Shown here piece by piece: positions 591-25,059 of a stretch of DNA of 64,000 nucleotides; within the stretch, counting starts at the first letter, position 1, and the number at the start of each line of letters is the position of its first letter. Origin of the DNA: a bacterium (GTDB lineage Bacteria > Krumholzibacteriota > Krumholzibacteriia > G020349025); assembly GCA_031362565.1 (NCBI GenBank), contig JANLSU010000047.1, positions 13,692-77,691 on the forward strand. Direction: 5' to 3'. Both the position numbers and the translations under genes were made by a program. The notes beneath the pieces are model-generated. The model was given only the letters and a program-made list of their open reading frames with translations, was not told the origin of the DNA and made no database searches.

Positions 591-795
591 GACGAACACC
601 TCCTACCGCGCATTCTGCCCACTGGACGATGACATGTTGGTGACCGATGCATGACAACTTGTTCATTAAGATTCTGACATCGCACCACACGCATAGTTTC
701 TCATTTGCAAACGCTGAAATGCGCGAGCCACGATGGGGGCTTCTGCTAAGCTGCGTTGCGTTTTCGTTCCTCACATACTTGCACGGAGGCCCCCC

Positions 796-9134: not shown

Positions 9135-9770
9135 ATGCGAAGTACGAGTTCGGTACTCCAAAAAGCGATCCTCGCACCGGCCGTCGCCGTGGCCTTGATC
9201 GCAGTCGGGCCACTGGCCGGAGGCACCGCGTGGAGCCAAACCTCCTACGCGGTCCTCGGCGCGCATGTCTCGCACAATCAGGTGCGGGATGCGAACGACG
9301 GCAATTTCCTGGGCGGCGTACACGGCGAACTGCGGCCGATCCCGATGCTCGGCCTCAATGCCTCGGTTGATTTCCGCTCCGACGAGCAGTTCGACGTTCA
9401 GATGGGAACAACGAACGCCGCGCTACACGTTCGGACCGTGCCGATCACGCTTTCTGGAAAGCTCTATCTGCCGATCGCACCGGTGGTAACGCCGTACGGA
9501 ATGGTCGGCGCCGGCTGGTACCACCAGGTCTTCGACTACTCATCGGACCTCGAGGCGCTTGGACTTCGCGATCACGACGAGACGACGTTCGGTTGGCATG
9601 TCGGCCTGGGGGCCAATCTAAATCTACAACCGCGGTTCGGCGTCTACGCCGACGCGCGCTGGATCTTCCTGGATCCGAATCGTAGCGTCGATAGCCAGAC
9701 GAGCGACCAGGTCAAGAATTTCGACTTCAACTCGATGAATGTACAAGCTGGCGTGAACTTCCTGTTCTAG
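9135..9770 (+). CDS. Outer-membrane beta-barrel protein (OmpW/OmpA-TM-like)
   Basis: Signal peptide, amphipathic strands, TPYGMVGAG motif, C-terminal QAGVNFLF beta-signal. Confidence 0.85.
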   Translation: MRSTSSVLQKAILAPAVAVALIAVGPLAGGTAWSQTSYAVLGAHVSHNQVRDANDGNFLGGVHGELRPIPMLGLNASVDFRSDEQFDVQMGTTNAALHVRTVPITLSGKLYLPIAPVVTPYGMVGAGWYHQVFDYSSDLEALGLRDHDETTFGWHVGLGANLNLQPRFGVYADARWIFLDPNRSVDSQTSDQVKNFDFNSMNVQAGVNFLF

Positions 9771-9785
9771 GCGCCACCGACGGAT

Positions 9786-10496
9786 TCAGGCGGCACCGCG
9801 GGCCGTGACGACGGCACCGACGGTGCGCGCCAGAATCCGGAGGTCCAGCCACATGGAACGATGCCGCCAGTAGGCGATGTCGAGCCGCACGCGATCATCG
9901 AAGTCCAAGTCATTGCGCCCCGAAACCTGCCACAACCCCGTCAGTCCAGGCTGCAATTCGAGCCGCGCCGTATGCCAAGGCTTGTACGTACTCGAGGCGA
10001 ACGATGTCGGCCGCGGGCCCACCAGGCTCATCTCGCCACGCAGGATGTTCACCACTTGCGGTAGTTCGTCGAGGCTCGAACGGCGCAGGAAGCGGCCGAT
10101 GCGTGTCATGCGCGGGTCATCGTGAATCTTGAAGTCCGGATAGCTCAGTTCGTTCATATGCATGTACTGCTGTTTGAGCTCCTCGGCATTCGCATGCATG
10201 GTCCGGAGCTTGAGCATCTTGAAGCGCCTCCCGCCCTTGCCGGTTCGCACCTGCAGGAAGAACATCGGCCCCGGCGAATCCAACTTCACGAGCACGGCGC
10301 ACATCGCGACAAGTGGTAGCACCACGGGCAGCATCACGCTGGTGGCTGCGACATCGAGGGCGCGTTTGAGGGCCGGATAGGCGCGATCCGACCCGGGCGC
10401 GACATGGGCGGGGCGCGCGTACCAGGGCCCACGGCGGGTGTGGTAGGGAACCCCCGTTGCGGCATTGCTCTGAGAACGAAGTGGGATGGAAGTCAT
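9786..10496 (-). CDS. Bacterial sugar transferase (priming phosphoglycosyl transferase)
   Basis: [45 protein letters not shown] and [12 protein letters not shown] motifs. Confidence 0.95.
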
Positions 10497-10563
10497 GTGA
10501 CACCTTCGTGGGCTCGCGTGCAGCGAGCGTTCGTCCGCGTGCAGAATAGCACCGCACATCCGC

Positions 10564-10585
10564 GAGTGAAAGCTTGCTTTCACTC
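10564..10585. promoter_or_regulatory. Perfect inverted repeat, candidate operator in the divergent EPS promoter region
   Basis: GAGTGAAAGC-TT-GCTTTCACTC. Confidence 0.5.
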
Positions 10586-10697
10586 ACAAGTCAAATGGCA
10601 TGACGGATGGGGCGACGAAACGCGGCTTGAAGGCCTGTCCAAGATTACAAATTGTTCATTTCATACGTGTAATGTCGCGAAAAAACACGCCGCAAAC

Positions 10698-10726
10698 TTG
10701 ACCGCGCCGCGCCTGTTCGCTATGAT
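10698..10726 (+). promoter_or_regulatory. Sigma70-type promoter for the comA-led operon
   Basis: TTGACC-N17-TATGAT, about 135 bp upstream of the comA ATG. Confidence 0.6.
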
Positions 10727-10861
10727 CGCGAACACCAGCGACGCGACGACATGCCGCGGTCAACGGAAGTTCGTCGGCGCGGAAACCCTGCACACACGCG
10801 CACTCTCGACTCGGAACCGGTTCACGAGTGCAGCCGCACCGAAACATCAGGATTGCTCGAC

Positions 10862-11689
10862 ATGGAACCTTTCGCACCCAGACCAAACACGACGAGCTAC
10901 CTCCGTTCAATCGGTGTCCGTGACTTGCCGCCGCGGACATGTCCGTTCGACCCCGGGTATGACGCTCTGACTCTGCGCGGCCATCTCGAGCAAAGCGCGC
11001 ACTTGATGTCGACGCTCAAGATCTCGATGGCGTGCTGGCTGGTCGCGAAGGAACAGGTGACGCGCGAAAAGATCGCCATGGCGCGCCGGCATCGTGTCCC
11101 CACGGTCACCGGCGGCGGGCCGTTCGAGATCGCCGCCGCTCAAGGGCATGTGCGCGAGTATCTCGATTTGTGTGCCGACATCGGCGTGACGCGAATCGAA
11201 GCCGGCGAAGGGTTCACGGACCTGACGCTGGCTCCCGGCGCGGTCATGAGCATGGCGCGCGAGCGCGGGCTCGAGGTGCAGTTCGAGCTGGGGAAGAAGC
11301 ATGCCGGGGCGTTCGACAGCGGCATGGTCGGCGACCTCATCGACCAGGGCCGCAGCTGGCTGGACGCTGGAGCGGTGCAACTGGTCATCGAGGCCCGCGA
11401 AAGTGCTGCGGGTGTCGGCCTGTTCGACATTTCTGGAGCCCTGAACCGGGCGTTCGCGGACCGCTTTGTGAGCGCCTTCGGTTTCGAGGTCGCGGTATTC
11501 GAAGCGCCGAACAAGCCGAGCCAGTTTGCGCTGCTCGAACATTTTGGATCCGAAGTGCACCTGAGCAACGTGCGCCTCGAGGAATTGTTACGGGTTGAAA
11601 TCTACCGGCGGGGATTGCACTCGGATGCGTTCGAGAAGGCAAATCTGCGGCCGCGCGTTCCCGGCGAGGAAACTCCTGCACGCGCTTGA
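10862..11689 (+). CDS. comA: Phosphosulfolactate synthase (ComA family)
   Basis: GGGPFE, ELGKK, IEARES, FEAPNKPSQ and HLSNV...VEIYRRGLHSDAF match the ComA TIM-barrel pattern. Confidence 0.85.
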   Translation: MEPFAPRPNTTSYLRSIGVRDLPPRTCPFDPGYDALTLRGHLEQSAHLMSTLKISMACWLVAKEQVTREKIAMARRHRVPTVTGGGPFEIAAAQGHVREYLDLCADIGVTRIEAGEGFTDLTLAPGAVMSMARERGLEVQFELGKKHAGAFDSGMVGDLIDQGRSWLDAGAVQLVIEARESAAGVGLFDISGALNRAFADRFVSAFGFEVAVFEAPNKPSQFALLEHFGSEVHLSNVRLEELLRVEIYRRGLHSDAFEKANLRPRVPGEETPARA

Positions 11690-11731
11690 GCCAGCGGAAC
11701 GCACCGAGTCCCGGAGGAGGGTCGTACCAGC

Positions 11732-12469
11732 GTGAATCACATCGTACGCGTCGATTGTTTCAACGATGACCTGCCGTTATACGGCGACGACTACGCAGTC
11801 ATCGCTGTGGATGTGATGCGTTCCACGACGACAGCGGTCACCGCGGTCGCGACGGGACGCCGCTGTTTTCCAGTGGCCTCAATCGAAGGCGCACTACGCC
11901 TCGCGAGCGTGTTGCCCAATGCCCTGCTCGTGGGCGAGCAGGGCGGTGGCATGCCCTACGGCTTCGCCTTCACGAACAGTCCGTACGAAATGCACCGCCG
12001 TGACTATGACCTGAGCCGTCCGGCGGTCTTGCTGTCGAGTTCGGGGACCAAGCTCCTTTGCGCCGCTGCCGAGCGTCATGCGACCGTCTATGCAGCTTGC
12101 CTACGCAATGCCCGCGCGACGGCCGCATGGGTGGCGGCGCATCATACCCATGTGGCAATTGTCGGGGCCGGCACCCGCGGTGAGTTCCGCGAGGAAGACC
12201 AGCTGGCCTGCGCCTGGATTGCCGCGACCCTGGTGACGCACGGATTCGAAGCCGGCGCCCTGGCCGCCGCCATCATCGAGCGCTGGCAGTCGGCGCCGGT
12301 GCACCTGATTGCCGATGGCAAGAGTGCCGCATACCTGCGTCGATCCGGACAAACCTTCGACCTGCATTTTGTCCTCTCGCATATCAACGACCTCGACCTG
12401 GTGTGCGCGTTGCAAAACGACGAGATCGTCGTCGCGGACCGCGTGCCGATCCAAGAGGTGGCGGCATGA
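11732..12469 (+). CDS. comB: 2-phosphosulfolactate phosphatase (ComB family)
   Basis: VDVMRSTTT, GEQGG...GF...NSP, SSSGT, ACLRNARA and AG..GEFREED motifs. Confidence 0.9.
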   Translation: MNHIVRVDCFNDDLPLYGDDYAVIAVDVMRSTTTAVTAVATGRRCFPVASIEGALRLASVLPNALLVGEQGGGMPYGFAFTNSPYEMHRRDYDLSRPAVLLSSSGTKLLCAAAERHATVYAACLRNARATAAWVAAHHTHVAIVGAGTRGEFREEDQLACAWIAATLVTHGFEAGALAAAIIERWQSAPVHLIADGKSAAYLRRSGQTFDLHFVLSHINDLDLVCALQNDEIVVADRVPIQEVAA

Positions 12470-13746
12470 AGGAGCCATGGCGTGCGATACAGCGCTCGAC
12501 TCCGGTGCTGCTTCTCAAAGGGGTCGCGGACCCTCTGCAGCAGTCGGGGGTGGCGATCGCGCGCAGCCTGGGGCGGCTCGGCGTCGCGGTGCACGGTGTG
12601 TACGATGCCGTCGATGTTCCCGGCGCCCGGTCGCGCTACGTCCAAAGCCGCAGCGCCTGGGATGTGGCACGGTCGGCGCGGGAAGCAACGCTGCGGCACT
12701 TGCGAGACCGGGCTGACGATATTGGCGGCGTACCGCTGCTCATCCCGACCGACGATGTCGCGACCCTGTTCGTCGACGAACAGGCCGACACCTTGCGCCT
12801 GACGTTCGGGTTTCCCGGCCAACCGCGTGGCCTGCCGCGCCAACTCGCCGACAAGCGGTCGATGCAAATGCTTTGCGCCGCGCACGGCGTCGACACCGCA
12901 CGCTGTGCCTATCCAACGTCGCGCCGCGATCTGTTGCACATTCTCCAGGACTGGCAGTTCCCGGCCGTGCTGAAGAGCATGGACCCGGCACTGCTGCGCC
13001 AGCGTCCTGGGGCGAAGAGCGTCACGATCGCGGCCACCGCACCGGAACTCCTTGCCGCCTATGACGCGATGGAAGTGCCGGGACATCCGAACCTTATGCT
13101 GCAGGAATACATTCCCGGGGACGCCGAGTCGGTGTGGATGTTCAACGGCTATTTCGATGCGGATTCGGATTGTCTGTTCGGAGTCACCGGCCGAAAAATC
13201 CGTCAGAGCCCGCCGCATACCGGCGCGACCTCGCTTGGAGTCTGCCTCCATAACGGCGTCGTGTTCGAGAAAACGCGGCGGTTCATGAAGGCGATCGGCT
13301 ATCAGGGCAGCCTCGATCTCGGGTTCCGGTATGACCTGCGGGACGGCCGCTACAAGTTGCTCGACGTCAATCCGCGCATCGGCGCCACCTTCCGGCTCTT
13401 CGTCGACGCCAACGGCATGGACGTGGCGCGCGCTCAGTACCTGGATCACACCGGACAGCCGGTTCCCGCTTCGGCGCCGGTTCCGGGGCGCCGCTGGCTG
13501 GTCGAAATGCGCGACTTGAGCTCGGCGCACCAACTGCGGCGCGCGGATGAACTCACGGCGTGGTCCTGGCTCCGCTCGTATGCCGGCGTGCGCGAGACGG
13601 CGTGGTTTGCCGCCGACGACATGGGCCCCTTCCGCGCCGTGCTCGGCTACTACATGTCGCGCGCCGTTCGCCGGTCGCAAGCCCCGGCGCAAGCCCGCGA
13701 GCGCGGCCCGCGGATGCAGATCGCTCCCAAGGTGGTGCGCCCATGA
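12466..13746 (+). CDS. ATP-grasp carboxylate-amine ligase (D-aspartate-ligase-like family)
   Basis: IARSLGRLGV, LIPTDD, FPAVLK, LQEYIPG and DLRDGRYKLLDVNPR motifs; ATGA overlap with comB. Confidence 0.85.
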   Translation: MKEPWRAIQRSTPVLLLKGVADPLQQSGVAIARSLGRLGVAVHGVYDAVDVPGARSRYVQSRSAWDVARSAREATLRHLRDRADDIGGVPLLIPTDDVATLFVDEQADTLRLTFGFPGQPRGLPRQLADKRSMQMLCAAHGVDTARCAYPTSRRDLLHILQDWQFPAVLKSMDPALLRQRPGAKSVTIAATAPELLAAYDAMEVPGHPNLMLQEYIPGDAESVWMFNGYFDADSDCLFGVTGRKIRQSPPHTGATSLGVCLHNGVVFEKTRRFMKAIGYQGSLDLGFRYDLRDGRYKLLDVNPRIGATFRLFVDANGMDVARAQYLDHTGQPVPASAPVPGRRWLVEMRDLSSAHQLRRADELTAWSWLRSYAGVRETAWFAADDMGPFRAVLGYYMSRAVRRSQAPAQARERGPRMQIAPKVVRP

Positions 13747-14282
13747 AAACGGCACTGCATGGCGAATACCGTTGCCGTCGCACCGTCGCTCTGGTGCTTC
13801 GCACCTGGGTGGGCGCGGTCGCGCTGTGGGCATTGCAGGGCGCGCCGCGTGCGTGCGCTCAGGAAGACAATCGCTATTTGCTCGGACAGGACCGGCAACT
13901 CGAAATGATCGTCCATATCATTGGTGAAGTGAAGGCGCCGGGTGAGTACCGGGTGCACGACAACACGACCGCTCTCGAACTGCTGTCCAAAGCCGGCGGC
14001 CCGACGGAGTTCGCGAACCTGGGCGCCATCCTCATTCGCCATACCCAACCGGGCGGCCCGGGCGCCGCCCTGGCTGCCGGGCCGTCAGTTCAGAAGATCA
14101 ACTTGGGGAAATACCTGCACGACAGCACCGCCACGCCACCGCCGGTCTTGCAACCGGGCGACTTTGTCTCCGTCCCCGGCAATCGCTGGCGGACCTGGCG
14201 CAGCGGTTTCTCGGTCGTGCGTGACCTCGCCGTGGTGGCTTCGGCCTATTTTCTTTATCTCCGAGCCCACAACAACAACTGA
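13743..14282 (+). CDS. SLBB-domain polysaccharide export protein (short Wza-like)
   Basis: Signal peptide; VHIIGEVKAPGEY, LSKAGGPTEFAN and LQPGDFVSVP motifs; C-terminal amphipathic helix. Confidence 0.8.
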   Translation: MKTALHGEYRCRRTVALVLRTWVGAVALWALQGAPRACAQEDNRYLLGQDRQLEMIVHIIGEVKAPGEYRVHDNTTALELLSKAGGPTEFANLGAILIRHTQPGGPGAALAAGPSVQKINLGKYLHDSTATPPPVLQPGDFVSVPGNRWRTWRSGFSVVRDLAVVASAYFLYLRAHNNN

Positions 14283-14294
14283 TGAGGAGGGTGG

Positions 14295-16562
14295 ATGCGT
14301 TCCCGCGAAGCAGATCTCATCATGGCCCGGCTGCGGCGGGCCTTCCGGCGCCGCAAACGCTGGATCGTGGCGTGCACCGCCATCACGTTGTTGCCGATCG
14401 TCGCCTACAACGAGCTGAGTACGCCCGTCTACGAAGCGACGACGTCGATCGTGTTCGACGATGCATCGAATGCCCCGACCGGCAGCAATGAAGCACTGCG
14501 GGCCCGCGATATCGCCATCGCTAACCGGGTGCAGGAGTTATCGAGCTACTCGTTTGCGGCCGAGGTCGCAGCGACGATCGCTCCCGAGCACTTGCAGCGC
14601 ATCCCGCCGCCGCGCGATCCGAAGCCCGACTTCGATTCGAAGCGCTACGTCATCGATACGATTCGCGAGAGCATCACCGCCGAGCCGGTGCGTAATTCCA
14701 ACATCATCACGTTGGGTGTCGTTCTTCCGGACGCCGAGCTGGCGACCGAAGTCGCCAACGCCGCTGGACACATCTACGAATTGCGTTCACAGCGGATCAA
14801 GCAGGAGGGCGTCGGCGGTTTGCGTCAATTCATCGAGCAACAGCTCGAGCGCACCCGGACGCAGCTCGAGCAAGCCGAGAATGACCTGAAAACGTACAAG
14901 GAAAAGAATCAAATCACGTCGTTCGACAGCGAAACGCAGGAAGTGCTGCGGCGCGTCACGGATGCCGAGGTGCTCTACAACGGCGCCATCTCCAAGCGGC
15001 GCTCCCTGGAAGATAAATTGACGGCAGCCCAGAAACAGATCGAGTCGCAGCGCCAGGGTCTCGTGGCCGCAGTCACCGAGGCGACCACGCCGCGCGCCCA
15101 ACGCCTCAAGGAGAAGCTCGTCGGCCTGCAACTGCAGTACACCGATCTCCAAGTCCAGAACTACGCGCTCAACCACCCCAAGATGGTGCAGCTCGAGAAG
15201 GAGCTCGGAGACACCAAGGCGAGCCTCACGGAGGAGGCTCGCAAGATCGCCGTCGGCCTGACCGTGGCCGACCCAATCGCCCAGATGGAACAGTTGATCA
15301 GCGATTCCGTGTCGATGGGAATCGAGGTGCAGGCACTGCGGGCCCAGGAAGGTGCCTTGCAGAAGATCATCCATCAGTATGACGCCGACATGGGCAAGCT
15401 GCCCGAACGCGAGTTCAACCTGGCGCGCTTGACGCGCGACCGCGATGTTGGGCAAAAGGTGTATTCCATGCTGCGCGAGCGTCTCGAGGACAGCAAGATC
15501 AACGAGGCTCAGAACCTCCCGAGCCTGCGCGTCCTGGATGCGGCGATGCTGCCCCAGGATCCGCTGCGGCCACGCAAGGCGATCAATCTCGCGATTGGCA
15601 TCGTCCTCGGCCTGATCTTTGGAATCGGCGCGGCGTTCGCGCGCGAAAATCTCGGTACGGGAGTCGATCATACCGGCGAGATCGAATCGCTGACCGGATG
15701 GCCGTTCTTGGCATCGATCCCGCGGGTGGAGCACTTGGCGCGTGGCACCGTCGGGCACGCCAAAGGGATGGGCGCTGCCGATGCCCGGCGCATGCGGCGT
15801 GCCCTCCTGTCGCTCACCGATCCTAATTGCGGTGGGGCGGAAGCCTATCGCATGTTGCGAACCAATCTGCAGTTCCGCGGTTTCGGCAAGGACTTCAACA
15901 GCCTTGCCGTAACCAGCGTTAGTTCCACCGACGGCAAGTCGATGACCGCCTCGAACCTGGCGATCGCCTCGGCGGCGGTCGGCCTGCGCACTCTGCTCGT
16001 GGATGCCGAGGTGCGCCGGCCGGGCATGCACACGGTGTTCGGCGTCGATCTCGTGCCGGGTGTCAGTGACCTGATGAACGCGCGCCTACGAGATGCAGCA
16101 GCCGAACGTCCCTGGCGCGAAGCCTCTGCCGCCGCGAATGGCGGCCCGGTGGCCACCAAGACCACTACGGCGGCTACGACCGCGACGAACGACTTCGTGC
16201 GCCGCACGGCACTGCCCAACCTGTCGATTCTCACCGCCGGAACCCCGATCGACAACGTGCATGAAGCCATCTCGCGTTGGGCAGCGGACCTCGCCCGGCT
16301 GCTGGCGACCTTGAAGCAGGACTACGACATCGTGATTCTCGACTCACCGCCGCTTGGAATCGTGCATGACGCCGCGGTGCTGGCCCAGCTCGCCGATCGC
16401 GTCCTGTTCGTGGTCAATGGCCTGCGCGTCGATGCAGAGCAACTCCAGAACGCCAAGCGGCTCCTCGATGGGGCCGGGGCCCGCGTCGTCGGGTCGGTGC
16501 TGAATCACATGGACCCCTACGGCGTGTACGAGAGGAGCCCGTACTTCCAAACGACGGCTTGA
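14295..16562 (+). CDS. Polysaccharide co-polymerase / BY tyrosine kinase (Wzc/GumC-like)
   Basis: Two TM helices around a coiled coil; EAYRMLRTNL, TS....DGKS, LVDAEVRRP and ILDSPP motifs; three Tyr in the C-terminal tail. Confidence 0.92.
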   Translation: MRSREADLIMARLRRAFRRRKRWIVACTAITLLPIVAYNELSTPVYEATTSIVFDDASNAPTGSNEALRARDIAIANRVQELSSYSFAAEVAATIAPEHLQRIPPPRDPKPDFDSKRYVIDTIRESITAEPVRNSNIITLGVVLPDAELATEVANAAGHIYELRSQRIKQEGVGGLRQFIEQQLERTRTQLEQAENDLKTYKEKNQITSFDSETQEVLRRVTDAEVLYNGAISKRRSLEDKLTAAQKQIESQRQGLVAAVTEATTPRAQRLKEKLVGLQLQYTDLQVQNYALNHPKMVQLEKELGDTKASLTEEARKIAVGLTVADPIAQMEQLISDSVSMGIEVQALRAQEGALQKIIHQYDADMGKLPEREFNLARLTRDRDVGQKVYSMLRERLEDSKINEAQNLPSLRVLDAAMLPQDPLRPRKAINLAIGIVLGLIFGIGAAFARENLGTGVDHTGEIESLTGWPFLASIPRVEHLARGTVGHAKGMGAADARRMRRALLSLTDPNCGGAEAYRMLRTNLQFRGFGKDFNSLAVTSVSSTDGKSMTASNLAIASAAVGLRTLLVDAEVRRPGMHTVFGVDLVPGVSDLMNARLRDAAAERPWREASAAANGGPVATKTTTAATTATNDFVRRTALPNLSILTAGTPIDNVHEAISRWAADLARLLATLKQDYDIVILDSPPLGIVHDAAVLAQLADRVLFVVNGLRVDAEQLQNAKRLLDGAGARVVGSVLNHMDPYGVYERSPYFQTTA

Positions 16563-16607
16563 ACTGGTGCGCCTCAGGATGAAACACCCAAGGATGCCAC
16601 GAAGGTA

Positions 16608-17273
16608 GTGCCAAGTCCCATGAACACGTTCCGCGACATTCCACCCCTCGTCCTCCTCACTTCGGTGATTGCGCTTCTTGGCAGCGCGGTGGTGATCTTC
16701 GCGACGCGCCGAATTGCCCGTGATCTCGTTGCCGCCTTCTGGACGCCGGATTCCGGACTCCCGACGTACCGCAAATGGCTCGACGTTTTGCATCGCGAGC
16801 TGAACCGCGCGCGCCGCTATCACCACCCGCTCGCAGTGGTCGTGACCCGCCTGACCGACAGCGGCTCTCTCGGTGACGTGAGCCGTGAGCGCGCCTCGGC
16901 ATCGCGGCGCCGGCAGCTGGCGACGATGCGGGCCGGGTTCTTGATGCGTGAATTGCTGCGCGACACCGACGTGGTCACGTACGACCCGGCGGACAACAGG
17001 TTTGTCTTGCTGCTCACGGAAACCGATCCGGCCCAGGCGCGCGCCGCCATGGCCCGTCTCGATGCCATTGTCCTCGAGCGCGCCGGGGCTCGCCTCCGAA
17101 GTGGGATTGCAATGTTCCCGGCGGATGGCCTCATCACCGAGGACTTGGTGATGCTGGCGTCGGCCCATTGCGCGGGAGAAAAGGCCGGCACGCCGATCAG
17201 TGCGCTCGCGAAATACCCGGCGGCAGCCGCGGCGATCGCCACCGTGAAGCCCAACGCGGCACGGACTGCCTGA
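16608..17273 (+). CDS. Membrane-anchored degenerate GGDEF-like protein
   Basis: N-terminal TM; RELNRARRYHHPLAVV, LLRDTDVV (RxxD), RFVLLLTETD and SGIAMFPADG motifs; GG(D/E)EF absent. Confidence 0.75.
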   Translation: MPSPMNTFRDIPPLVLLTSVIALLGSAVVIFATRRIARDLVAAFWTPDSGLPTYRKWLDVLHRELNRARRYHHPLAVVVTRLTDSGSLGDVSRERASASRRRQLATMRAGFLMRELLRDTDVVTYDPADNRFVLLLTETDPAQARAAMARLDAIVLERAGARLRSGIAMFPADGLITEDLVMLASAHCAGEKAGTPISALAKYPAAAAAIATVKPNAARTA

Positions 17274-17283
17274 GGAGAGCGAC

Positions 17284-18477
17284 GTGGACATCAACCCGCC
17301 GGCGGTCGCACTCGTCGTCTTCGTGGGGTCGGTGGCCGTGCTCGCCTATGTCTATGTTGGCTTTCCACTTCTGGTCCTGCTGTGGGGTGCAGTCCGGCCG
17401 CGCCGCGTTCACATCGCTGCCGTCACCCCCCGCGTCAGTTTGATCATCGCGGCGCACAACGAAGCGGCAAGTGCCACCGCCAAGGTGCAAAACTGCCTCG
17501 ATGTCGACTATCCGCCCGCGGCAATCGAAGTGGTGTTCGCAAGCGATGGTTCCACCGACCGCACGGAAGAGATCGTGCGCCGCTTCGCGGCGCGCGGCGT
17601 CCGGCTCCTATCTCTGCCGCGCCAGGGCAAGCTGGCGGCGGTGCACGCCGCCGTCGAGGCTTCGACGGGCGAGATTCTCGTGTTCTCCGATGCCAACACG
17701 TACTTTCATCCCGACGCGGTGCGCATGCTGGCGCGCAACTTCGCCGATCCGGCAGTCGGCGGCGTGTGTGGGAATCTGCAAGTCCGCTCCCGCGACCGCG
17801 GCCGCGACCGCGCCGATTCGAGCGGCGCCGGCGAGTCCTGGTATTGGGAACTCGACAAGGCATTGAAACGCATGCAAAGCCGCAGCGGCAGTATCGTGGC
17901 CGCGGACGGGGCGATCTACGCCATCCGGCGCCATCTGTACACGCGGCCGGAACACACGGCAGTGACCGATGATTTTGCGATCTCGACCGGCGTCGTGGCG
18001 CGCGGCTACCGCTTGGTCTTCGAGCCTGAGGCGCTGGCGTGGGAACCGAGCGCCGGCCGCGCCGGCCTGGAGTTCTCGCGCAAAGTGCGCATCGTCAATC
18101 GCGGTCTGCGCGGCGTGCTGCTGCGCCGCCAACTCCTGAACCCGCGCCGTTATGGGTTCTATGCGGTCATCCTGTTCTCGCACAAAGTACTGCGGCGTGT
18201 GGCGCCGCTCTTTCTCATGAGTCTCTTGGCGAGCACTCTGGCGCTCGCCGCCCACGGGACAGGATTCGCGATCGCGCTCTATGCACAGTTGGCGTTCTAC
18301 GCCACGGCGCTGGCGGGTTGGATGCTGCGAGGCAGGGCGTTTGGCCGCCAAAAGCTGCTGCTCGCGCCCTTTTACTACTGTCTCGCCAATGCCGCGGCGC
18401 TCGCCGGTTTGTGTTCGCTCGCCACCGGACAGCGCATCGAGCGTTGGGAGCCGCAGCGTACGGGGGCCGCGTCATGA
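17284..18477 (+). CDS. Family 2 glycosyltransferase with TM helices
   Basis: VSLIIAAHNE, SDGSTDRT, FSDAN, GAIYAIRR and TDDF motifs. Confidence 0.92.
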   Translation: MDINPPAVALVVFVGSVAVLAYVYVGFPLLVLLWGAVRPRRVHIAAVTPRVSLIIAAHNEAASATAKVQNCLDVDYPPAAIEVVFASDGSTDRTEEIVRRFAARGVRLLSLPRQGKLAAVHAAVEASTGEILVFSDANTYFHPDAVRMLARNFADPAVGGVCGNLQVRSRDRGRDRADSSGAGESWYWELDKALKRMQSRSGSIVAADGAIYAIRRHLYTRPEHTAVTDDFAISTGVVARGYRLVFEPEALAWEPSAGRAGLEFSRKVRIVNRGLRGVLLRRQLLNPRRYGFYAVILFSHKVLRRVAPLFLMSLLASTLALAAHGTGFAIALYAQLAFYATALAGWMLRGRAFGRQKLLLAPFYYCLANAAALAGLCSLATGQRIERWEPQRTGAAS

Positions 18478-21400
18478 GCCCGCCGTTTGCGGCTGTCGAG
18501 ACCGGCGACCCTGGGCGCCGCCAGATTCGCGGTTCGAGCCTGCTGCTTCTCGGCCGTGGGATTTCACTGCCGCTGAGCTTGTGCGCGCAAGTGCTCCTGG
18601 TCCGTTACCTGGCCAAGGCGGACTATGGAGCACTCGCGTACGGGCTCGCGGTGGTGACGTTCTTCGACGGCCTCGCCGGTCTCGGCCTCGAAACGGCGCT
18701 GTCGAGATTCATCCCGATCTATCACGAGCGCCGCGATTGGGGCCGGTTCTTCGGGGTGATCGCGCTCACGGTTACGGTGATCCTCGCCATGGGCGCGGTG
18801 ATCATTCTTGCCATCTGGGCGTCACCGGACTTGCCGGCGAAGTTGATACGCGAGGTCGGGAAGTCGTCGAGCGTGCTGCTCGTCATCGCGTTCTTGATTC
18901 CACTCGAAGCCCTCGACCAGGCGCTAGTGGCGCTCTTCGCCAGTCTGGCGAACCCGCGCTTCATTCTGCTGCGCCGCAGTCTCATCGCACCGGTGTTGAA
19001 GTTGGCCGTGATCCTGATCGCCATCGCCGGCGCCAAGGACGTGCGCTTCGTGGCGTTGGGCTACGTCATCAGCTCGGCGATCGGCATCGTGGTTCTGTCG
19101 CTCTTCTTCGCGCGTTATCTGCACCGCGCCGGACTGTTGCACCACTGGCGCTCCACCCGGCTCGAGATCCCGGTACGCGAGGTCCTCGGGTTCAGCATTC
19201 CACTCATGGCGACCGACATGGTCTCGACCCTGATTCCACTCACCAGCACGATGGTGCTCGGCTACTTCCACGGCAACGCTTCGGTGGCGAGTTATCGCGT
19301 CATTCTGCCCTTGACCGGCATGATTCACGTGATCATGCGGAGCTTCAACCTGCTCTACACGCCGCACGCGTCGCGGCTCTTCGCTCGCGATGACCCGGAT
19401 GGTGTCGGCGCGTTGTACTGGCACTCCGCGAGCTGGCTCGCAGTGGCGACATTTCCGTTGTTCGCCGCCATCTTTCTCTGTGCGGAGCCGCTGACCGTGC
19501 GCCTGTACGGTGAACGGTATGCGAGTTCCGCCGGCGTCCTGCAGATCCTCGCCATGGCCTACTACTTCCACGTCGCCCTGGGCATGAACGGGTTGACGCT
19601 GCGTGTCTTGGGCAAGGTGCGCGCGGTTGTGGCGACCACGGCGGCGGCACAACTCGTCGGCACCGCGGTCGCTTTCCTGCTGATTCCTGGGCGAGCGGCG
19701 ATGGGTGCGGCGATCGCCACCGCGGTCGCGATGTGCGCCGATACGCTGCTCAAGCAAGGGTTACTCATGAAGGCGAATGCCGCCGTCGGCCGGGGGGCGG
19801 GCAGGCAAGGCTTCTACGGCGCGATCGGTGCGGCCGTCGGCATCGTCCTGTTGACCCGCTGGGTGTTGCATCCGGGTCTGGTCGCGAGCGCGGGCATCGT
19901 AGTCGGTGCGTCGCTCTTCTTGCTGACCGCATTGTGGCGGCGCTTGCGCGTCTACGAATGCTTTCCGGAGCTGCTGCGCGTGCGGCGCGCGGCTTTGAAG
20001 CTCTTCTCCCGCGGCTCGGGCGGCGGCGCCGGCGATCGACCTGGCTCCGCCGGCACGCCGGCGGTTCTGCGCCGTATTCGGGTCTGGATTGCGGCTCTCG
20101 GCGCCGCGTTCATCGTGCTGACAATCGCCGGTTCGGCGTGGTCGGCACCGCTCGGGTTTCCGGGCGCGGATCGCATCCCACTGGTCATTGGTGCTCTTGT
20201 CATGGTGATCGCGGCCGCAGCGGTCGTCTGCGGGTTATTCCTGTGGCCGGACACTGCCGTGATCGCCGGCGTGTTGCTTCTCTATGCGAACATTCCCGTG
20301 ATTCTCGGCGAGCGCATCGGCAGCCCGATGGCCGTCGGCATCGCCATCGTTACCCTGATCGCGCTGGCGGCATTCGGCCGCGCTGTCGTGCATCGCGACG
20401 GACCGGCGATCGATCTGCCGTTCTTGGGGCTCATCGTGTTTCTGGGCGCGGGTTTGTTGTCGACGCTCTTCGCCCGCGATCCGGCGGTCGCCTTCGGGTG
20501 GCTCGGCACGTTCACGGTCGAAGTCGTCGCTCTGTACCTGTTGCTCTTGAACGCGGTGCGGAGTGCCCGAAGCCTGCGGCGCGTCTTCCGGGCACTGGTG
20601 TTCGGGGCGGCGGTTCTCGCCCTGCTCGGCGCCTCTCAGGAAGTGAGCGGCAACTACTCGCAGCAGTTCATGGGTCTCGCACACCGCAACTTGTCGCTCT
20701 TGAACGACGACCCCAACGCCGCGACCGGGATGGAGCGTCCGGCGGGCGGCGTGCGGCTCGCGCAACGCGGCTCGGGCCCCATCGGCGAGCCCAACCGTTG
20801 GGCGCAAACGCTGCTTTTTCTGCTGCCGCTCGGCCTGCTCGGGATCCGCCACGAACCTTCCGCCGGCCGGAAAGTGACGCTGGCAGCGGCCTCCACGTTG
20901 ATCGCCGGCGGCGTGTTTCTGACCTACTCGCGCGGCGCGCTCGTTACGATCGCTGGACTCGCGGCCGGGTTGGCCGTCCTGCGGGTCGTGCGCGTACGCG
21001 TCCTGTTGGCGGGCGGCATCGGCATCGCGGTGGCGGCGGCATGCATGGCACCGAACACCGTCGCGCGGCTCGGCACCTTCGGCGGGATCGAGAGTCTGTT
21101 CGGGCATCAGAAGAGTGCGAAGCCAGCCGATAACGCCATCCGCGGGCGCATGACCGAAATGCTGGCGGCCGGTCTCGTGGCGCTCGATCATCCGCTCGTC
21201 GGCGTCGGGCCCGGCCATTTCACGCCATATTATTCACTCGAGTACATGGCGACTCCCGGCATCGCGTTTCGCGACATCGACAAGACGCGCCGCGCCCACT
21301 CGTTGTACCTCGAGATGGCGGCGGAAACCGGCATCATCGGTCTCGCGGCATTTCTCGCCGTGCCGGTCCTGCTGGCAGTACGCCTTTGGAAGTGGCACCG

Positions 21401-21692
21401 CCGGTTGCGTGTCAGCCGCCCCGACCTGGCCGACCTCGCAGCCGGATGCCTGTTGGCATTGATGGCGTATCTCGGCACCGGCGTGTTCTTGCACCTGTCG
21501 TATCAGCGGTACTACGGCCTGCTGCTGGGACTGTGCGGCTGTTGTGTGGCGGTTTTGGACGTGGAGACGAAGGCACTCGGCGGGGGCGTGGAAGAGGGCC
21601 GCATCGTGCGTGGCGTCTTTATGCCGGCACCACGACCACTCGATCTCGAGCCACTCGAGGCGCCGGGCGCCAACCGCCTGGCCCATCTCTAG
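18474..21692 (+). CDS. Fusion of Wzx-type flippase and O-antigen ligase/Wzy polymerase family domain
   Basis: N-half: polytopic flippase (LLVRYLAKADYG, VLGFSIPL, LYGERY). Gly-rich linker. C-half: GPIGEPN, LTYSRGA, HPLVGVGPG, RAHSLYLEMAAETGIIG. ATGA-coupled start at 18474. Confidence 0.85.
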   Translation: MSPPFAAVETGDPGRRQIRGSSLLLLGRGISLPLSLCAQVLLVRYLAKADYGALAYGLAVVTFFDGLAGLGLETALSRFIPIYHERRDWGRFFGVIALTVTVILAMGAVIILAIWASPDLPAKLIREVGKSSSVLLVIAFLIPLEALDQALVALFASLANPRFILLRRSLIAPVLKLAVILIAIAGAKDVRFVALGYVISSAIGIVVLSLFFARYLHRAGLLHHWRSTRLEIPVREVLGFSIPLMATDMVSTLIPLTSTMVLGYFHGNASVASYRVILPLTGMIHVIMRSFNLLYTPHASRLFARDDPDGVGALYWHSASWLAVATFPLFAAIFLCAEPLTVRLYGERYASSAGVLQILAMAYYFHVALGMNGLTLRVLGKVRAVVATTAAAQLVGTAVAFLLIPGRAAMGAAIATAVAMCADTLLKQGLLMKANAAVGRGAGRQGFYGAIGAAVGIVLLTRWVLHPGLVASAGIVVGASLFLLTALWRRLRVYECFPELLRVRRAALKLFSRGSGGGAGDRPGSAGTPAVLRRIRVWIAALGAAFIVLTIAGSAWSAPLGFPGADRIPLVIGALVMVIAAAAVVCGLFLWPDTAVIAGVLLLYANIPVILGERIGSPMAVGIAIVTLIALAAFGRAVVHRDGPAIDLPFLGLIVFLGAGLLSTLFARDPAVAFGWLGTFTVEVVALYLLLLNAVRSARSLRRVFRALVFGAAVLALLGASQEVSGNYSQQFMGLAHRNLSLLNDDPNAATGMERPAGGVRLAQRGSGPIGEPNRWAQTLLFLLPLGLLGIRHEPSAGRKVTLAAASTLIAGGVFLTYSRGALVTIAGLAAGLAVLRVVRVRVLLAGGIGIAVAAACMAPNTVARLGTFGGIESLFGHQKSAKPADNAIRGRMTEMLAAGLVALDHPLVGVGPGHFTPYYSLEYMATPGIAFRDIDKTRRAHSLYLEMAAETGIIGLAAFLAVPVLLAVRLWKWHRRLRVSRPDLADLAAGCLLALMAYLGTGVFLHLSYQRYYGLLLGLCGCCVAVLDVETKALGGGVEEGRIVRGVFMPAPRPLDLEPLEAPGANRLAHL

Positions 21693-21700
21693 GGAAGTTC

Positions 21701-22642
21701 ATGCTGCGCATTCTCACCTATCACCGCGTCGACGTCCGGAAGGACGACGAGACCTTGTCGCCGCGCATGGTGAGTGCCGAGCCGCAAGTCTTCGAGGCGC
21801 AAATGCGCTGGGTCGCGCAGCACTACGAAACGGTGTCTCTCGCCGACGTGTTGCAGGCCGTGCACGGTGCCCGCCGGCTCCCGAATCGTGCGGTGCTCGT
21901 GACGTTCGACGATGCGTACCGCGATTTTCGCACCCACGCGTGGCCGATTCTCGCGGCCCGCAGAATCCCGGTGGTGCTCTTCGTACCCACGGCATTCCCT
22001 GGCCGACGCAACTTCCATTTCTGGTGGGACCGGCTCTTCCGTGCCTTCCAGGGAACCACCGCCCCGATGCTCGCCCACACGCCGCTTGGCGGCCTGCCGA
22101 CGGATACGCCCAGCCATCGCGCCCAATCGCAACGGCGGCTCGAAACGTATCTAAAGTCGATTTCACACGACGCCGCAATGCGCTGGGTCGAGCACGTGTG
22201 TTCCGAAGCGGGGGTCGTCGATCCGGGCGACAACGGCGTGCTCACCTGGGACGAACTGCGGGATCTCCACACCGCCGGGGTCACGATGGCGTCGCATTCA
22301 CACGAGCATCCAGTGCTGACGCGCGTGCCGCCGGACCGGGTCCGCGAGGAATTGCTCCGGTCGCGCGGCGCTCTGCTCCGGGAACTGGGGGAGTGCCCGC
22401 CCGTGTTGAGCTATCCCGCCGGTGCGCATGACGCACATGTGGCGGCACAGTTGCAAGAGACCGGCTACGAACTGGGGCTGACGCAGCGCGACGGCCACAA
22501 CGACCTGCAATCGCACGACCTCTTGGCTCTATGTCGAACCAATCTCACGCGCAAGACGACGCCACTGATTCTCGAACTCCGCCTGCAGCCGTGGACCCAG
22601 CGGATCGAGCGCTTGCGCCATCACGCGCACGCGAGTTCATGA
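21701..22642 (+). CDS. Polysaccharide deacetylase (CE4/NodB-like), no signal peptide
   Basis: ILTYHRV, VTFDDAY, SHSHEH and LSYPAG motifs. Confidence 0.9.
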   Translation: MLRILTYHRVDVRKDDETLSPRMVSAEPQVFEAQMRWVAQHYETVSLADVLQAVHGARRLPNRAVLVTFDDAYRDFRTHAWPILAARRIPVVLFVPTAFPGRRNFHFWWDRLFRAFQGTTAPMLAHTPLGGLPTDTPSHRAQSQRRLETYLKSISHDAAMRWVEHVCSEAGVVDPGDNGVLTWDELRDLHTAGVTMASHSHEHPVLTRVPPDRVREELLRSRGALLRELGECPPVLSYPAGAHDAHVAAQLQETGYELGLTQRDGHNDLQSHDLLALCRTNLTRKTTPLILELRLQPWTQRIERLRHHAHASS

Positions 22643-23982
22643 GCCATGCGACTGGAGCCGTCATGATGAATCCACAACGTGCAACCGCCGCCGGAAACGG
22701 TGCGTCCGCTGCGCCACGGCCGCTGCGTGTCGCTTACATCGTGTCGCGCTTTCCAAAAGTGACCGAAACGTTCGTGCTGTTCGAGATGCAAGCCATGGAA
22801 CGCCTCGGGGTGCAGGTCGAGTTCTTCCCGTTGCTGCGCGAGCGCGAGACGGTCATGCATCCGGAAGCCGCGCGCTGGATGCAACGGGCCCACTATATGC
22901 CGTTTGTTTCGCTGCCCATTCTGTGGGCGCAATTGTGGTTCCTGGCGCGGTCACCGCGCCGCTACATGGGAATGTGGCTCGAGGTTCTGCGCCGCACCTT
23001 CGGCAGTGCGAATTTCTTCGTCGGAGCTCTCGGGACCGTTCCGAAGTCGGTCCGTTTCGCGTATGAGATGCGGCGCCTCGGCATCGAGCATGTGCACGCG
23101 CACTTCGCCAGCCACCCCACCGTCGCGGCATTCGTGATCCGCCGCTTGACGGGCATTCCTTACAGCTTCACGGCGCACGGCGCGGATCTGCATGTCGATC
23201 GACACATGTTGCGTGAAAAAATGCGCGAGGCGGCATTTTCGGTGCCGATCTCGGAATACAACCGGCGGCTCATGCTGGCGGCGTGCGATGAAGATCTCGC
23301 CGACCGGACGCATATCGTGCATTGCGGTGTCGACGTCGGCGTCTTCTTGCCGCGCGCCGCGGACCGTGCTCCGGCACCGCGGTTCCAGATGCTCTGCGTG
23401 GCGCGGTTCGAGACCGCCAAGGGGCACCGCTATCTCATCGAGGCCTGCCGGATTCTGGCGGCCGGCGGCTGGGATTTCGACTGCCACCTCATTGGTGACG
23501 GCCCCCGGCGGCAGGACATCGCGGCGCAGGTGGCGACAGCTGATCTAGGCGCCCGGCTGCATCTGCACGGCGCGCGGACCCGCGCCGAAGTGGTGCAGTG
23601 GATGGCCAAGGCGGATGTCGTCGTATTGCCGAGCACACCGATGCCTTCCGGCCGGCGCGAGGGAATTCCCGTCGTCCTCATGGAGGCCATGGCGAGCGAA
23701 CTGCCCGTCGTCTCGACTGCGACATCGGGGATTCCGGAACTCGTCGAGGACGGAGTGTCCGGCCTGCTCGTTGCGCCTGAAGATCCGATTGCGTTGGCTG
23801 CGGCGCTTGAACGCCTCATGGCGAGCCCGGATCTGCGGCAAGCGTTCGGCCGGGCGGGGCGCGCCCGGGTGGCGCGGGATTTCGATCTGTACCGTAACGC
23901 CGCCGAACTTGCGGCGCTGTTTACCTCACGCGGAACAAAGCCCACGCCGGCGGATGCGAATGCGTTGGGCGTGCCAGTCTAG
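22639..23982 (+). CDS. Family 4 glycosyltransferase (WcaL-like)
   Basis: RFPKVTETF, HVHAHF, SFTAHG and EGIPVVLMEAMA motifs; start could be 22663. Confidence 0.92.
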   Translation: MSHATGAVMMNPQRATAAGNGASAAPRPLRVAYIVSRFPKVTETFVLFEMQAMERLGVQVEFFPLLRERETVMHPEAARWMQRAHYMPFVSLPILWAQLWFLARSPRRYMGMWLEVLRRTFGSANFFVGALGTVPKSVRFAYEMRRLGIEHVHAHFASHPTVAAFVIRRLTGIPYSFTAHGADLHVDRHMLREKMREAAFSVPISEYNRRLMLAACDEDLADRTHIVHCGVDVGVFLPRAADRAPAPRFQMLCVARFETAKGHRYLIEACRILAAGGWDFDCHLIGDGPRRQDIAAQVATADLGARLHLHGARTRAEVVQWMAKADVVVLPSTPMPSGRREGIPVVLMEAMASELPVVSTATSGIPELVEDGVSGLLVAPEDPIALAAALERLMASPDLRQAFGRAGRARVARDFDLYRNAAELAALFTSRGTKPTPADANALGVPV

Positions 23983-23994: not shown

Positions 23995-25059
23995 GTGACT
24001 CCGTTGAACCGAAGAAGTCTGCGGCGGATGGCATGCCTCGGATGCACCGTCGTTGGAATTGGCATCGGACCCGCGCCGGCTTCGGCAATCGCGCCGCTGG
24101 CGGCACATTCCGGCATCTGGATCAGCCGTGAGGAAATCGCCGCGTTGCCCATGTCCGGCCCTGCCTGGGAGTACCTGCAGCGTGACGCCCACCAAAAGAT
24201 CCCGCCGCCGGACCTGTCGAACCAGAACGATCGCACCAACGTCATCGTCGTCGCCAAAGCTTTCGTCTTCGCCCGTACCGGCGACGAGTCGTATCGCAGC
24301 GAAGTGCGGCAGGCGATCCGTGCGGCGATGGGCACCGAGCGCGGCGGCCGGACGTTGTCGCTGGCGCGTCAGCTCGGCTCGTACGTCATTGCGGCTGAAT
24401 TGATCGGCCTGCCGCCCGACGAAGACGACATTTTCCGCACCTGGTTGCGCTCGACTCTCGATTTCGATCTCGAAGGGCGCACGCTCCGCACGACGCACGA
24501 ACTGCGGCCGAACAATTGGGGCACCCATGCCGGAGCGAGCCGGCTCGCCGCCGCGCTGTACGTGGGCTGGACGCCGGAAGTCGAACGCTGTGCACAGGTG
24601 TTCCGCGGCTGGCTCGGCGAGCGTGCGTCGTACGCCGGATTCGAGTTCGGCGACCTGTCGTGGCAATCGGATCCGGCGCATCCGGTCGGCATCAACCCGC
24701 TCGGTGCGACCCGTGACGGGTATTTGATCGATGGCGTGCTGCCGGACGACCAACGGCGGGCGAGTCCGTTCACGTGGCCGCCACCGCACGAGAACTATGT
24801 CTACGAAGCGCTGCAAGGCGCTGTCGCGCAGGCCGTAATGTTGGAGCGCGCCGGTTACCCGGTCTGGGCTTGGAGTGATCGCGCCCTGCTGCGAGCTTTC
24901 CTGTGGCTGCAGAGTAGGGCGAACTATCCGGCCACCGGCGACGATACGTGGCTCCTACCAATTGTCGATCGTGCCTACGGTACGCAGTTCTGGGACGGCG
25001 GTCCGACGCATCCCGGAAAAAGCATCGGCTGGACGGATTGGACGCATGCACGACGTTGA
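23995..25059 (+). CDS. Secreted alginate-lyase-like protein
   Basis: Signal peptide; NNWGTH motif resembling the NNH site of alginate lyase family proteins; helical composition. Confidence 0.6.
   Translation: MTPLNRRSLRRMACLGCTVVGIGIGPAPASAIAPLAAHSGIWISREEIAALPMSGPAWEYLQRDAHQKIPPPDLSNQNDRTNVIVVAKAFVFARTGDESYRSEVRQAIRAAMGTERGGRTLSLARQLGSYVIAAELIGLPPDEDDIFRTWLRSTLDFDLEGRTLRTTHELRPNNWGTHAGASRLAAALYVGWTPEVERCAQVFRGWLGERASYAGFEFGDLSWQSDPAHPVGINPLGATRDGYLIDGVLPDDQRRASPFTWPPPHENYVYEALQGAVAQAVMLERAGYPVWAWSDRALLRAFLWLQSRANYPATGDDTWLLPIVDRAYGTQFWDGGPTHPGKSIGWTDWTHARR

Follow-up and report, generated by a model that had tools for sequence, protein, structure and literature searches.

Why would an operon for an exported polysaccharide begin with homologs of sulfolactate-forming enzymes? 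The question is raised by a 64,000-nucleotide stretch of a Krumholzibacteriota genome (NCBI GenBank assembly GCA_031362565.1, contig JANLSU010000047.1, positions 13,692 to 77,691 of the forward strand), here called the window and numbered from its first nucleotide. On its + strand, from 10862 to about 25059, the window carries one tightly packed, Wzx/Wzy-type glycan operon, whose leading three genes encode a ComA homolog, a ComB homolog, and an ATP-grasp ligase. An earlier note, made from the letters of the window, had assigned these genes in this way, and the Pfam matches, the fold match, and the gene order bear it out. We propose that sulfolactate, formed from phosphoenolpyruvate (PEP) and sulfite, would be attached through nitrogen, ahead of export, to a sugar that either has been de-N-acetylated or carries a 4-amino group, a reading to which we give an even chance. 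The wider claim, which we hold more tentatively and somewhat short of even, is that the trio is a portable cassette, present in at least 10 phyla (Bacteria of soil, peat, and sediment as well as Bathyarchaeia), that would provide exported glycans with a sulfite-fixing sulfolactyl route independent of 3'-phosphoadenosine 5'-phosphosulfate (PAPS).

ComA and ComB homologs at the head of the operon

The first gene (10862..11689, +) encodes a 275-amino-acid (aa) homolog of ComA-family phosphosulfolactate synthases, which scores 148 bits against PF02679 (E value 4e-43; gathering cutoff 25.2) and aligns over nearly its full length with PDB 24FO/1QWG (E ~7e-28) and with Bacillus subtilis 1U83 (E 1.5e-15). 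The second (11732..12469, +) encodes a 245-aa homolog of ComB-family 2-phosphosulfolactate phosphatases, matched by PF04029 (2-ph_phosp; E 1.2e-35, 123 bits, gathering cutoff 26.4) and aligned with PDB 2YYV and 1VR0 (E ~4e-13). Profile searches of the kind suggested in the earlier note place both proteins above the Pfam gathering scores but below the equivalog cutoffs of NCBIfam, a shortfall that is weighed below.

The window ComA keeps the GGxxFE, ExGKK, ExRES, FEAP, and RRGL blocks, and all 80 clade sequences that we compared (79 loci plus the window copy) retain GKK, RES, FEAP, and RRGL. Its ELGKK faces EVGKK of 1QWG, and both lysines of GKK occur in all 80 clade members; this block presumably holds Lys137 of Methanocaldococcus jannaschii ComA, the proposed general acid. 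The K, S, M, A, C, and W residues of an active-site-proximal K-x-SMACW segment are likewise invariant in 80 of 80; one of the six ComA seed peptides spanned this segment, so the sequence set is biased towards it. The invariant residues imply that these ComA proteins are under strong constraint and are not decaying and, to judge from their sequences, the SMACW proteins form a distinct clade.

The genes of the trio are closely spaced. The ComA stop codon (TGA, 11687-11689) is followed by a GTG start for ComB at 11732, preceded by GGAGGAGGG, and ATGA overlaps join ComB to the ligase (12466-12469) and the ligase to a Wza-like export gene (13743-13746), so that the ligase is ATGA-coupled on either side. 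Both overlaps had been pointed out in the earlier note and are present in the sequence.

An ATP-grasp ligase of the carboxylate-amine type

The third gene (12466..13746, +) encodes the 426-aa ligase (P0001). Its AlphaFold2 model (predicted local distance difference test score 90; predicted template modeling [TM] score 0.88) was recognized by Foldseek against the PDB as an ATP-grasp protein with probability 1.0 and an E value of ~1e-15, the matches being carbamoyl-phosphate synthetase, PurK, L-amino-acid ligases, and biotin carboxylases at 10-17% identity and query-normalized TM scores of 0.5-0.6. At the sequence level, D300-V-N302-P-R304 of the ligase faces L-E-V-N-T-R of a biotin carboxylase subunit in a weak alignment (E 0.085), and D300, N302, and R304, which make up the metal/phosphate-binding acid-x-Asn-x-Arg motif, are invariant in 40 ligase homologs.

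Profiles place the ligase less precisely. Its best Pfam match, ATPgrasp_Ter, is subthreshold (21.7 bits versus 29.1), its NCBIfam matches reach 31 bits against cutoffs of 271-625 and put it in no curated ATP-grasp subfamily of known substrates, the TupA-type Pfam domain gave no match, and a PDB sequence search for a solved relative returned a single match, at E 0.085. The family is nevertheless large: more than 3,800 of 8,000 scored candidates were homologs at E <=0.001. Its relatives in a protein atlas fall exclusively into "carboxylate-amine ligase" clusters, and homologs carry the source names "carboxylate-amine ligase" or "D-aspartate ligase." Among the best 120 homologs, 20 bear a C-terminal methyltransferase domain and one (P0107) a Bac_transf domain.

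The trio is a conserved cassette

To assess linkage from the ComA side, we took the best 80 of 255 relatives in a species-representative genome collection (66-74% identical). ComB adjoins ComA in all 80 loci; 73 of them also contain a ligase with 38% identity or more, in 63 cases as an immediate neighbor. Of the other seven, three lie on contigs that end at or within ComB, and one (L073) has a divergent ATP-grasp gene ~1 kb downstream. From the ligase side, among the best 80 of at least 550 metagenome relatives confirmed in an alignment-seeded search, 43 have both ComA and ComB, 12 ComB only, 6 ComA only, and 19 neither, so that 61 of these 80 have ComA and/or ComB. Where there was full room for the partners (at least 1700 bp upstream and at least 1900 bp downstream of the ligase), which was the case for 34 loci among the matches listed, both genes are present in 28, a single one in 2, and neither in 4; ComA and/or ComB thus accompany 30 of the 34. 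The trio is a conserved cassette, linked reciprocally across phyla, and the survey suggested in the earlier note has thus turned out in favor of that note.

Between loci, the identity of any one protein of the trio tracks that of the others (Mantel r 0.52-0.62; 66 loci, 999 permutations), a correlation to which shared ancestry alone could contribute. In the ComA tree, the 79 loci are labeled Acidobacteriota (40), Bathyarchaeota (11), Pseudomonadota (5), Ignavibacteriota (5), Gemmatimonadota (4), Chloroflexota (4), Nitrospirota (3), Bacteroidota (3), Binatota (3), and Actinomycetota (1). Fitting the phylum labels to this tree takes 17 changes, against a minimum of 9 and a shuffled mean of 37.5, which indicates partly vertical inheritance with some mixing. 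The copy in the window forms a long branch and belongs to no supported clade. Among 60 relatives of the source genome that were searched, none had a match to PF02679; the cassette is hence patchy in the source lineage, and the trio appears to come and go as a unit. Bradyrhizobium elkanii WSM2783 (L077) is a cultured carrier, and the contigs with the Bathyarchaeia copies reach 1.5 Mb and bear archaeal housekeeping genes as well.

No plasmid copy of the cassette was found in PLSDB, where ComA homologs are at most 54% identical and stand in other contexts. Such homologs occur on Xanthobacter and Mycolicibacterium plasmids as well as on a plasmid of Streptomyces sp. NBC_00211 (L179, 357027-357824), on which a ComA homolog of 54% identity, with no ComB, is surrounded by acyl carrier protein (ACP), ketosynthase, MbtH, SbnB, methyltransferase, and nonribosomal peptide synthetase (NRPS) genes. 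This type of match occurs in six Streptomyces plasmids and looks like a candidate sulfonated natural-product cluster.

The cassette lies in glycan loci

Open reading frames (ORFs) within 7 kb of ComA were clustered, and clusters present in at least two loci were labeled with Pfam; 49 of the 80 loci have full flanks. Since singleton clusters were left unlabeled, the counts of glycan genes are lower bounds. Genes for glycan assembly or export (GT4, GT2, Bac_transf, Wzx, Wzc, Wza, WecG, and exosortase/EpsI) occur in at least 58 of the 80 loci; among those with full flanks, the count is at least 41 of 49. When glycan genes of every kind are counted, the figures become at least 61 and at least 42, respectively. 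In Bathyarchaeia, the neighbors are PIG-L, GT2, GT4, and GFO genes. In B. elkanii WSM2783, an enolase-superfamily gene follows the cassette, with Wzy_C-type and GT4 genes nearby. Of the four ligase loci with full room but no ComAB, three are of the same kind: L142 and L160 are glycan loci by scan (GT2, GT4, Wzx, DegT, and CE4), and L125 was judged to be of the glycan type from a gene layout matching that of L142 and from a Bac_transf match; L128 instead lies among amino-acid metabolism genes and is not a glycan locus.

Several neighbors could supply the amine that an amide would require. Over the 80 loci, candidate amine makers comprise carbohydrate esterase family 4 (CE4) proteins in 13, PIG-L in 10, and DegT in 8; we claim no enrichment of these genes near the cassette, for which the baseline would have to come from cassette-free glycan loci. 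In four Bryobacterales loci, a single strand carries, in order, Bac_transf, a PseC-like aminotransferase, a PseB/PglF-like dehydratase, a gene of no assigned function, a second aminotransferase, another gene of no assigned function, ComA, ComB, and the ligase, an order that reads as a predicted 4-amino-4,6-dideoxy-hexosamine route ending in the cassette. In several loci with a complete 4-amino-sugar pathway, no recognized N-acetyltransferase stands beside the cassette.

A LarA homolog occurs in 13 of the 80 loci (e.g., L023:6554-7936), usually immediately upstream of ComA. It is nearest to nickel-dependent malate racemases (E 4.8e-51, below cutoff) and is a candidate for a sulfolactate racemase. 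Malate and sulfolactate are, by our own reckoning, near-isosteric, and a malate-racemase-like neighbor is consistent with a cassette intermediate that resembles malate in being a 2-hydroxy acid, as sulfolactate does. We also considered a sulfolactate racemase in the source genome and rejected it, since its sole Lar_N gene is only 25% identical over 170 residues to a cassette-linked LarA homolog, too little for an ortholog.

Other genes recur beside the cassette, namely FemAB-like genes in 13 of the 80 loci, S8 peptidases in 10, methyltransferases in 10, and AMP-binding ligases in 6. An S8 domain is also found in a protein encoded at 28702-39399 of the window. An enolase-superfamily (MR_MLE) gene directly follows the ligase in six loci (L034:12709-13929, L077:12804-13958, and four others), some of which have FemAB-like and Amidohydro_3 genes upstream. 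We considered whether this gene encodes an N-acyl-amino-acid racemase, as would suit an acceptor that is an amino acid, and dropped the idea because its nearest NCBIfam model is galactonate dehydratase (E 4.5e-83, just below cutoff).

The operon of the window

The components of a Wzx/Wzy pathway (priming transferase, flippase, polymerase, co-polymerase/kinase, and outer export) are all present in the window locus. Upstream of ComA and divergently transcribed from the operon lies a Bac_transf gene for a priming polyprenyl-phosphate sugar-phosphate transferase (9786..10583, -; PF02397, E 1.5e-62; TIGR03025 EPS_sugtrans, E 5e-79, below cutoff). The divergent intergenic region contains, on the + strand, the sigma-70-like sequence TTGACC-17-TATGAT (10698..10726; 10 of 12 positions matched). 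For 10600-14400, the sequencing data sets listed as covering the region comprise no RNA set and five DNA sets, one of which is probably the source sample. The ligase is followed by a short Wza-like export protein that has an SLBB domain and no Poly_export domain (13743..14282, +; PF10531, E 3.5e-9; PF22461) and by a Wzc-type chain-length determinant/tyrosine autokinase (14295..16562, +; GNVR, Wzz, and AAA_31; TIGR01007, 132 bits versus a cutoff of 108). After a 221-aa ORF with no Pfam or NCBIfam match (16608..17273, +) comes a GT2 glycosyltransferase, weakly PgaC/NodC-like (17284..18477, +; PF00535, E 6.8e-24; TIGR03937, E 3.8e-25, and TIGR04242, E 1.2e-12, both below cutoff), and then a Wzx flippase fused to a Wzy-type polymerase/O-antigen-ligase-like domain (18474..21692, +; Polysacc_synt and Wzy_C in one frame), whose start we set at the ATGA overlap at 18474. 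A flippase and a polymerase in a single open frame, of ~1072 aa, is unusual.

The run continues with a CE4 polysaccharide de-N-acetylase (21701..22642, +; PF01522, E 8.4e-19; PgaB N-terminal-like, E 3.4e-27, below cutoff), a candidate maker of a free sugar amine; its N terminus, MLRILTYHRV, has no hydrophobic stretch or signal sequence. An EpsE-like GT4 glycosyltransferase (22639..23982, +; PF00534 and PF13692; NF041876, E 2.3e-72, below cutoff) and an alginate-lyase-like protein (23995..25059, +; PF05426, E 4e-7, 30.2 bits versus a cutoff of 22.2), the last clear gene of the run, complete it. Further ATGA overlaps link the GT2 gene to the Wzx-Wzy gene (18474-18477) and the CE4 gene to the GT4 gene (22639-22642). 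Pfam and NCBIfam scans found no uronic-acid gene within the operon. That the strand carries on through wzc, glycosyltransferases, wzx-wzy, and a deacetylase, as had been read from the letters, agrees with the family matches.

Outside the operon, the window encodes a 1248-aa protein (733-4479, +) combining a glyoxal/galactose-oxidase-like kelch domain, CarboxypepD_reg repeats, CBM96 modules, and a FlgD_ig tail. The S8-containing protein mentioned above (28702-39399, -) has 3565 aa, with an N-terminal S8 subtilase, many Ig-like/HYDIN-type repeats, and a C-terminal FlgD_ig-type domain. At 56114-58819 (+), the gene for a PIN_12 domain protein precedes one for a protein with HTH_3 and Peptidase_M78 (IrrE-like) domains; the two may form a pair of the toxin-antitoxin or defense type.

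A proposed route and its relation to known systems

We propose that ComA would add sulfite to PEP to give 2-phospho-3-sulfolactate and that ComB would remove the phosphate to give sulfolactate. The ATP-grasp ligase would then convert the carboxylate of sulfolactate to an acyl phosphate and transfer the sulfolactyl group to a free sugar amine, carried either by a nucleotide sugar or by an undecaprenyl-diphosphate-linked repeat unit; this acylation would be cytoplasmic because ATP is needed. In the window, the amine would come from the signal-less CE4 protein, following a deacetylate-then-reacylate logic like that of NodB/NodA. Priming of the repeat unit would fall to the divergent Bac_transf protein and its extension to the GT2 and GT4 enzymes; the Wzx-Wzy fusion would then flip and polymerize it, and Wzc and the Wza-like protein would see to export. 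The resulting polysaccharide would bear a C-sulfonate, a permanent charge introduced without PAPS. Inferred in this scheme are sulfite as the nucleophile, sulfolactate as the acyl donor, the nature of the acceptor, the formation of an amide, and the part played by the CE4 protein.

The first two steps have their model in the coenzyme M ComA/ComB proteins (M. jannaschii, 1QWG) and in B. subtilis YitD (1U83), which share the Pfam families, the adjacency, and the expected conversion of PEP and sulfite to phosphosulfolactate and on to sulfolactate. The window differs from the coenzyme M case in having no ComC or ComDE, in low identity and missed equivalog cutoffs, in the K-x-SMACW signature, and in what the two genes are coupled to, which is a ligase and a glycan operon in place of a cofactor pathway. 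The absence of comC/comDE noted earlier for the window extends to the whole source genome, which is 100% complete by marker genes and in which Ldh_2/ComC (PF02615) and the sulfopyruvate decarboxylase alpha subunit (TIGR03845) had 0 matches.

For the later steps, a parallel is found in the rhizobial Nod factor pathway, in which NodC (GT2) and the cytoplasmic CE4 de-N-acetylase NodB act before NodA re-acylates the freed amine. The window likewise has a GT2 protein with weak NodC/PgaC matches and a signal-less CE4 protein; here, however, re-acylation would use an ATP-grasp ligase and a sulfonated C3 acid, whereas NodA uses a fatty acyl carrier, and the product would be a Wzx/Wzy polymer and not an oligosaccharide signal. 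Closer in enzyme class is Pyl of Bacillus cereus, an ATP-grasp enzyme of the Pat/Pyl system that is encoded beside a phosphoglycosyl transferase and is reported to ligate 2-oxoglutarate to the uridine diphosphate (UDP)-4-amino sugar UDP-yelosamine. The likeness is a functional analogy, a glycan-operon ATP-grasp enzyme N-acylating an amino sugar with a small acid, and some cassette loci have the matching dehydratase and aminotransferase route; the acid would differ here in being sulfolactate from dedicated neighboring genes, and the window has a CE4 gene instead of an aminotransferase gene.

Two further systems bear on the proposal. The C-terminal TupA-like ATP-grasp amidoligase of Cj1438, which tailors the HS:2 capsule of Campylobacter jejuni, also forms an amide, but it activates the C6 carboxylate of the sugar and joins it to a small amine, whereas the window ligase has no TupA-type match and its partner acid has no amine. 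In Streptomyces, misNOPQ of misaugamycin-B (ACP, acyl-coenzyme A [CoA] ligase, phosphosulfolactate synthase, and glyoxalase) is the predicted source of an N-linked 2-sulfoacetyl group, and addition of sulfite raised the sulfonated congener. There, too, a portable ComA-containing cassette is predicted to deliver a sulfonated acyl group that ends N-linked to an amine; that system, in contrast, relies on acyl-CoA ligase and ACP activation, has no ComB, and places a 2-sulfoacetyl group on a glycopeptide N terminus. As a type of system, the cassette described here would tailor amino sugars by ATP-grasp chemistry, the novelty being a sulfonated acid whose supply is encoded in cis; the comparative evidence for the module is strong, and the chemistry is predicted from homology.

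Points against the proposal and alternatives to it

Several observations weigh against this proposal. ComA scores 148.3 bits against the equivalog model TIGR03849 arch_ComA, whose cutoff is 280, and ComB scores 81 against equivalog cutoffs of 175-235. The ligase has no characterized close relative, so that both of its substrates are deduced. The promoter sequence that the earlier note put ahead of the three genes is present, but the region 9500-26500 contains 2 promoter-type sites against 2.3 expected from shuffles, so that the motif by itself is not above chance; TTGACC-17-TATGAT as a promoter is plausible but unproven. The supply of sulfite is a further difficulty. In the source genome, PAPS_reduct (PF01507), NIR_SIR (PF01077), ATP-sulfurylase (PF01747), the molybdenum sulfite oxidase (PF00174), and TauD (PF02668) all had 0 matches, the PF01507 model having matched in 14 of 14 control genomes. 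The source organism seems to have no assimilatory sulfate reduction, and these negatives mean that an internal source of sulfite is not evident. They agree, on the other hand, with the PAPS-free route suggested in the earlier note, no PAPS pathway having been found in the genome (PF01507, PF01747). Cysteine dioxygenase can yield sulfite by way of cysteine sulfinate, and a gene of this family is present (PF05995, 60 bits, C97:77826-78227); it could serve as a source, although only indirectly. Uptake of sulfite from sediment pore water is another possibility. Overall, the amide of sulfolactate on an amino sugar suggested in the earlier note is favored by the reciprocal linkage, the glycan loci, the missing coenzyme M and PAPS genes, and the published precedent of Pyl, while its chemistry is predicted and an amine maker is recognized in just 22 of the 49 full-flank loci (30 of all 80).

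The cassette might instead attach sulfolactate to something other than a glycan, whether an amino acid or peptide stem, a lipid head group, or a soluble metabolite; its place in glycan loci would then reflect only the co-regulation of envelope genes. Seven of the 49 full-flank loci have no labeled glycan gene, L128 lies among genes of amino-acid metabolism, and some homologs are called D-aspartate ligases by their sources. The FemAB-like and AMP-binding neighbors and the second ATP-grasp genes of some loci (L019, L059, and L090) hint at amino-acid chemistry and make an amino-acid or ester linkage possible, and the ComA homologs at 54% identity lie in Streptomyces clusters of NRPS/polyketide synthase type. 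We nevertheless consider a non-glycan acceptor unlikely: in the window, translational coupling ties the ligase to both of its neighbors, ComB and the Wza-like gene, within a glycan operon, 42 of the 49 full-flank loci have glycan genes, a ligase homolog fused to a phosphoglycosyl transferase domain exists, and the FemAB-like neighbor in L037 is of the PEP-CTERM polysaccharide-associated type (TIGR03019, E 1.7e-22, below cutoff). The roles of the substrates could also be reversed, the 2-hydroxyl of sulfolactate attacking an activated uronic-acid or amino-acid carboxylate to give an ester. ATP-grasp enzymes can take hydroxy acids as nucleophiles, as VanA does with D-lactate, which it links to D-alanine; with Cj1438C, it is the C6 carboxylate of the sugar, and not the small molecule, that becomes activated; and amine-generating genes are absent from more than half of the loci. 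An ester seems to us a little less likely still, given that UDP-glucose dehydrogenase genes occur in only 5 of the 80 loci, that several loci pair a complete 4-amino-sugar pathway with no recognized N-acetyltransferase beside the cassette, and that the window has a CE4 gene and no uronic-acid gene in the operon.

The acid itself may also be questioned. In the window ComA, K-I-S-M-A-C-W stands where both solved ComA types have K-F-G-W-G-T, a divergence already remarked on in the earlier note and confirmed by alignment to both, so that the nucleophile or the mechanism could differ. The K-x-SMACW ComA might then add another nucleophile, or catalyze another enolate reaction, and the ligated acid would be a different 3-substituted lactate; a bolder variant of our proposal takes the invariant cysteine as the mark of such a changed ComA chemistry, giving a lactyl decoration with another 3-substituent. 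In the genome, moreover, the enzymes that usually form or consume sulfite were not found. The remaining blocks common to M. jannaschii ComA are (nearly) invariant, however, GKK included, the malate-racemase-like neighbor fits an anionic 3-substituent, and cysteine dioxygenase could feed sulfite; we regard another nucleophile as improbable, more so than an ester. Both ComA and the bacterial enzyme XcbB are documented to add sulfite to PEP (PMC9457059), and all characterized ComA family members cited there add sulfite. The genes could, finally, be independent of one another, ComAB making free sulfolactate as a solute or store and the ATP-grasp enzyme carrying out an unrelated amino-acid ligation on the glycan. 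Sulfolactate does occur as a free compound in B. subtilis spores, and the annotation of the ligase family as D-aspartate ligase would suit such a role. The linkage in ten phyla (30 of 34 loci from the ligase side, among the matches listed, and 73 of 80 from the ComA side), the co-varying divergence of the three proteins, the overlapping start and stop codons, and the 0 of 60 relatives with PF02679, which suggest that the trio moves as a unit, make independence very improbable. Sulfolactate amide-linked to an amino sugar is the reading that we retain.

Significance

Full-text literature searches, which left subscription journals mostly outside, returned no description of the cassette, of a link between ComA/ComB and polysaccharides, or of a sulfolactyl glycan, and the statement that no characterized example is on record stands within that scope. 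To our knowledge, glycans acquire anionic sulfur either from PAPS-dependent sulfotransferases, as O-sulfate esters, or from pre-made sulfoquinovose. If the proposal is true, the cassette would be a third route to glycan sulfur, and the charge that it confers would be acid-stable and sulfatase-resistant. The cassette is common, with 255 relatives in the ComA clade and at least 550 of the ligase; Acidobacteriota dominate among its carriers, and archaea are included. The cultured carrier B. elkanii WSM2783 makes the idea directly testable.

Sulfonates are described in reviews as a large part of soil organic sulfur. If sulfolactyl glycans are made as proposed, microbial surface polymers would be a direct and so far unrecognized biological source of environmental sulfonate sulfur, and the finding would bear on the chemistry of biofilms and soil aggregates, on the origin of soil sulfonate, on sulfite detoxification, and on the glycoengineering of sulfonated polymers.

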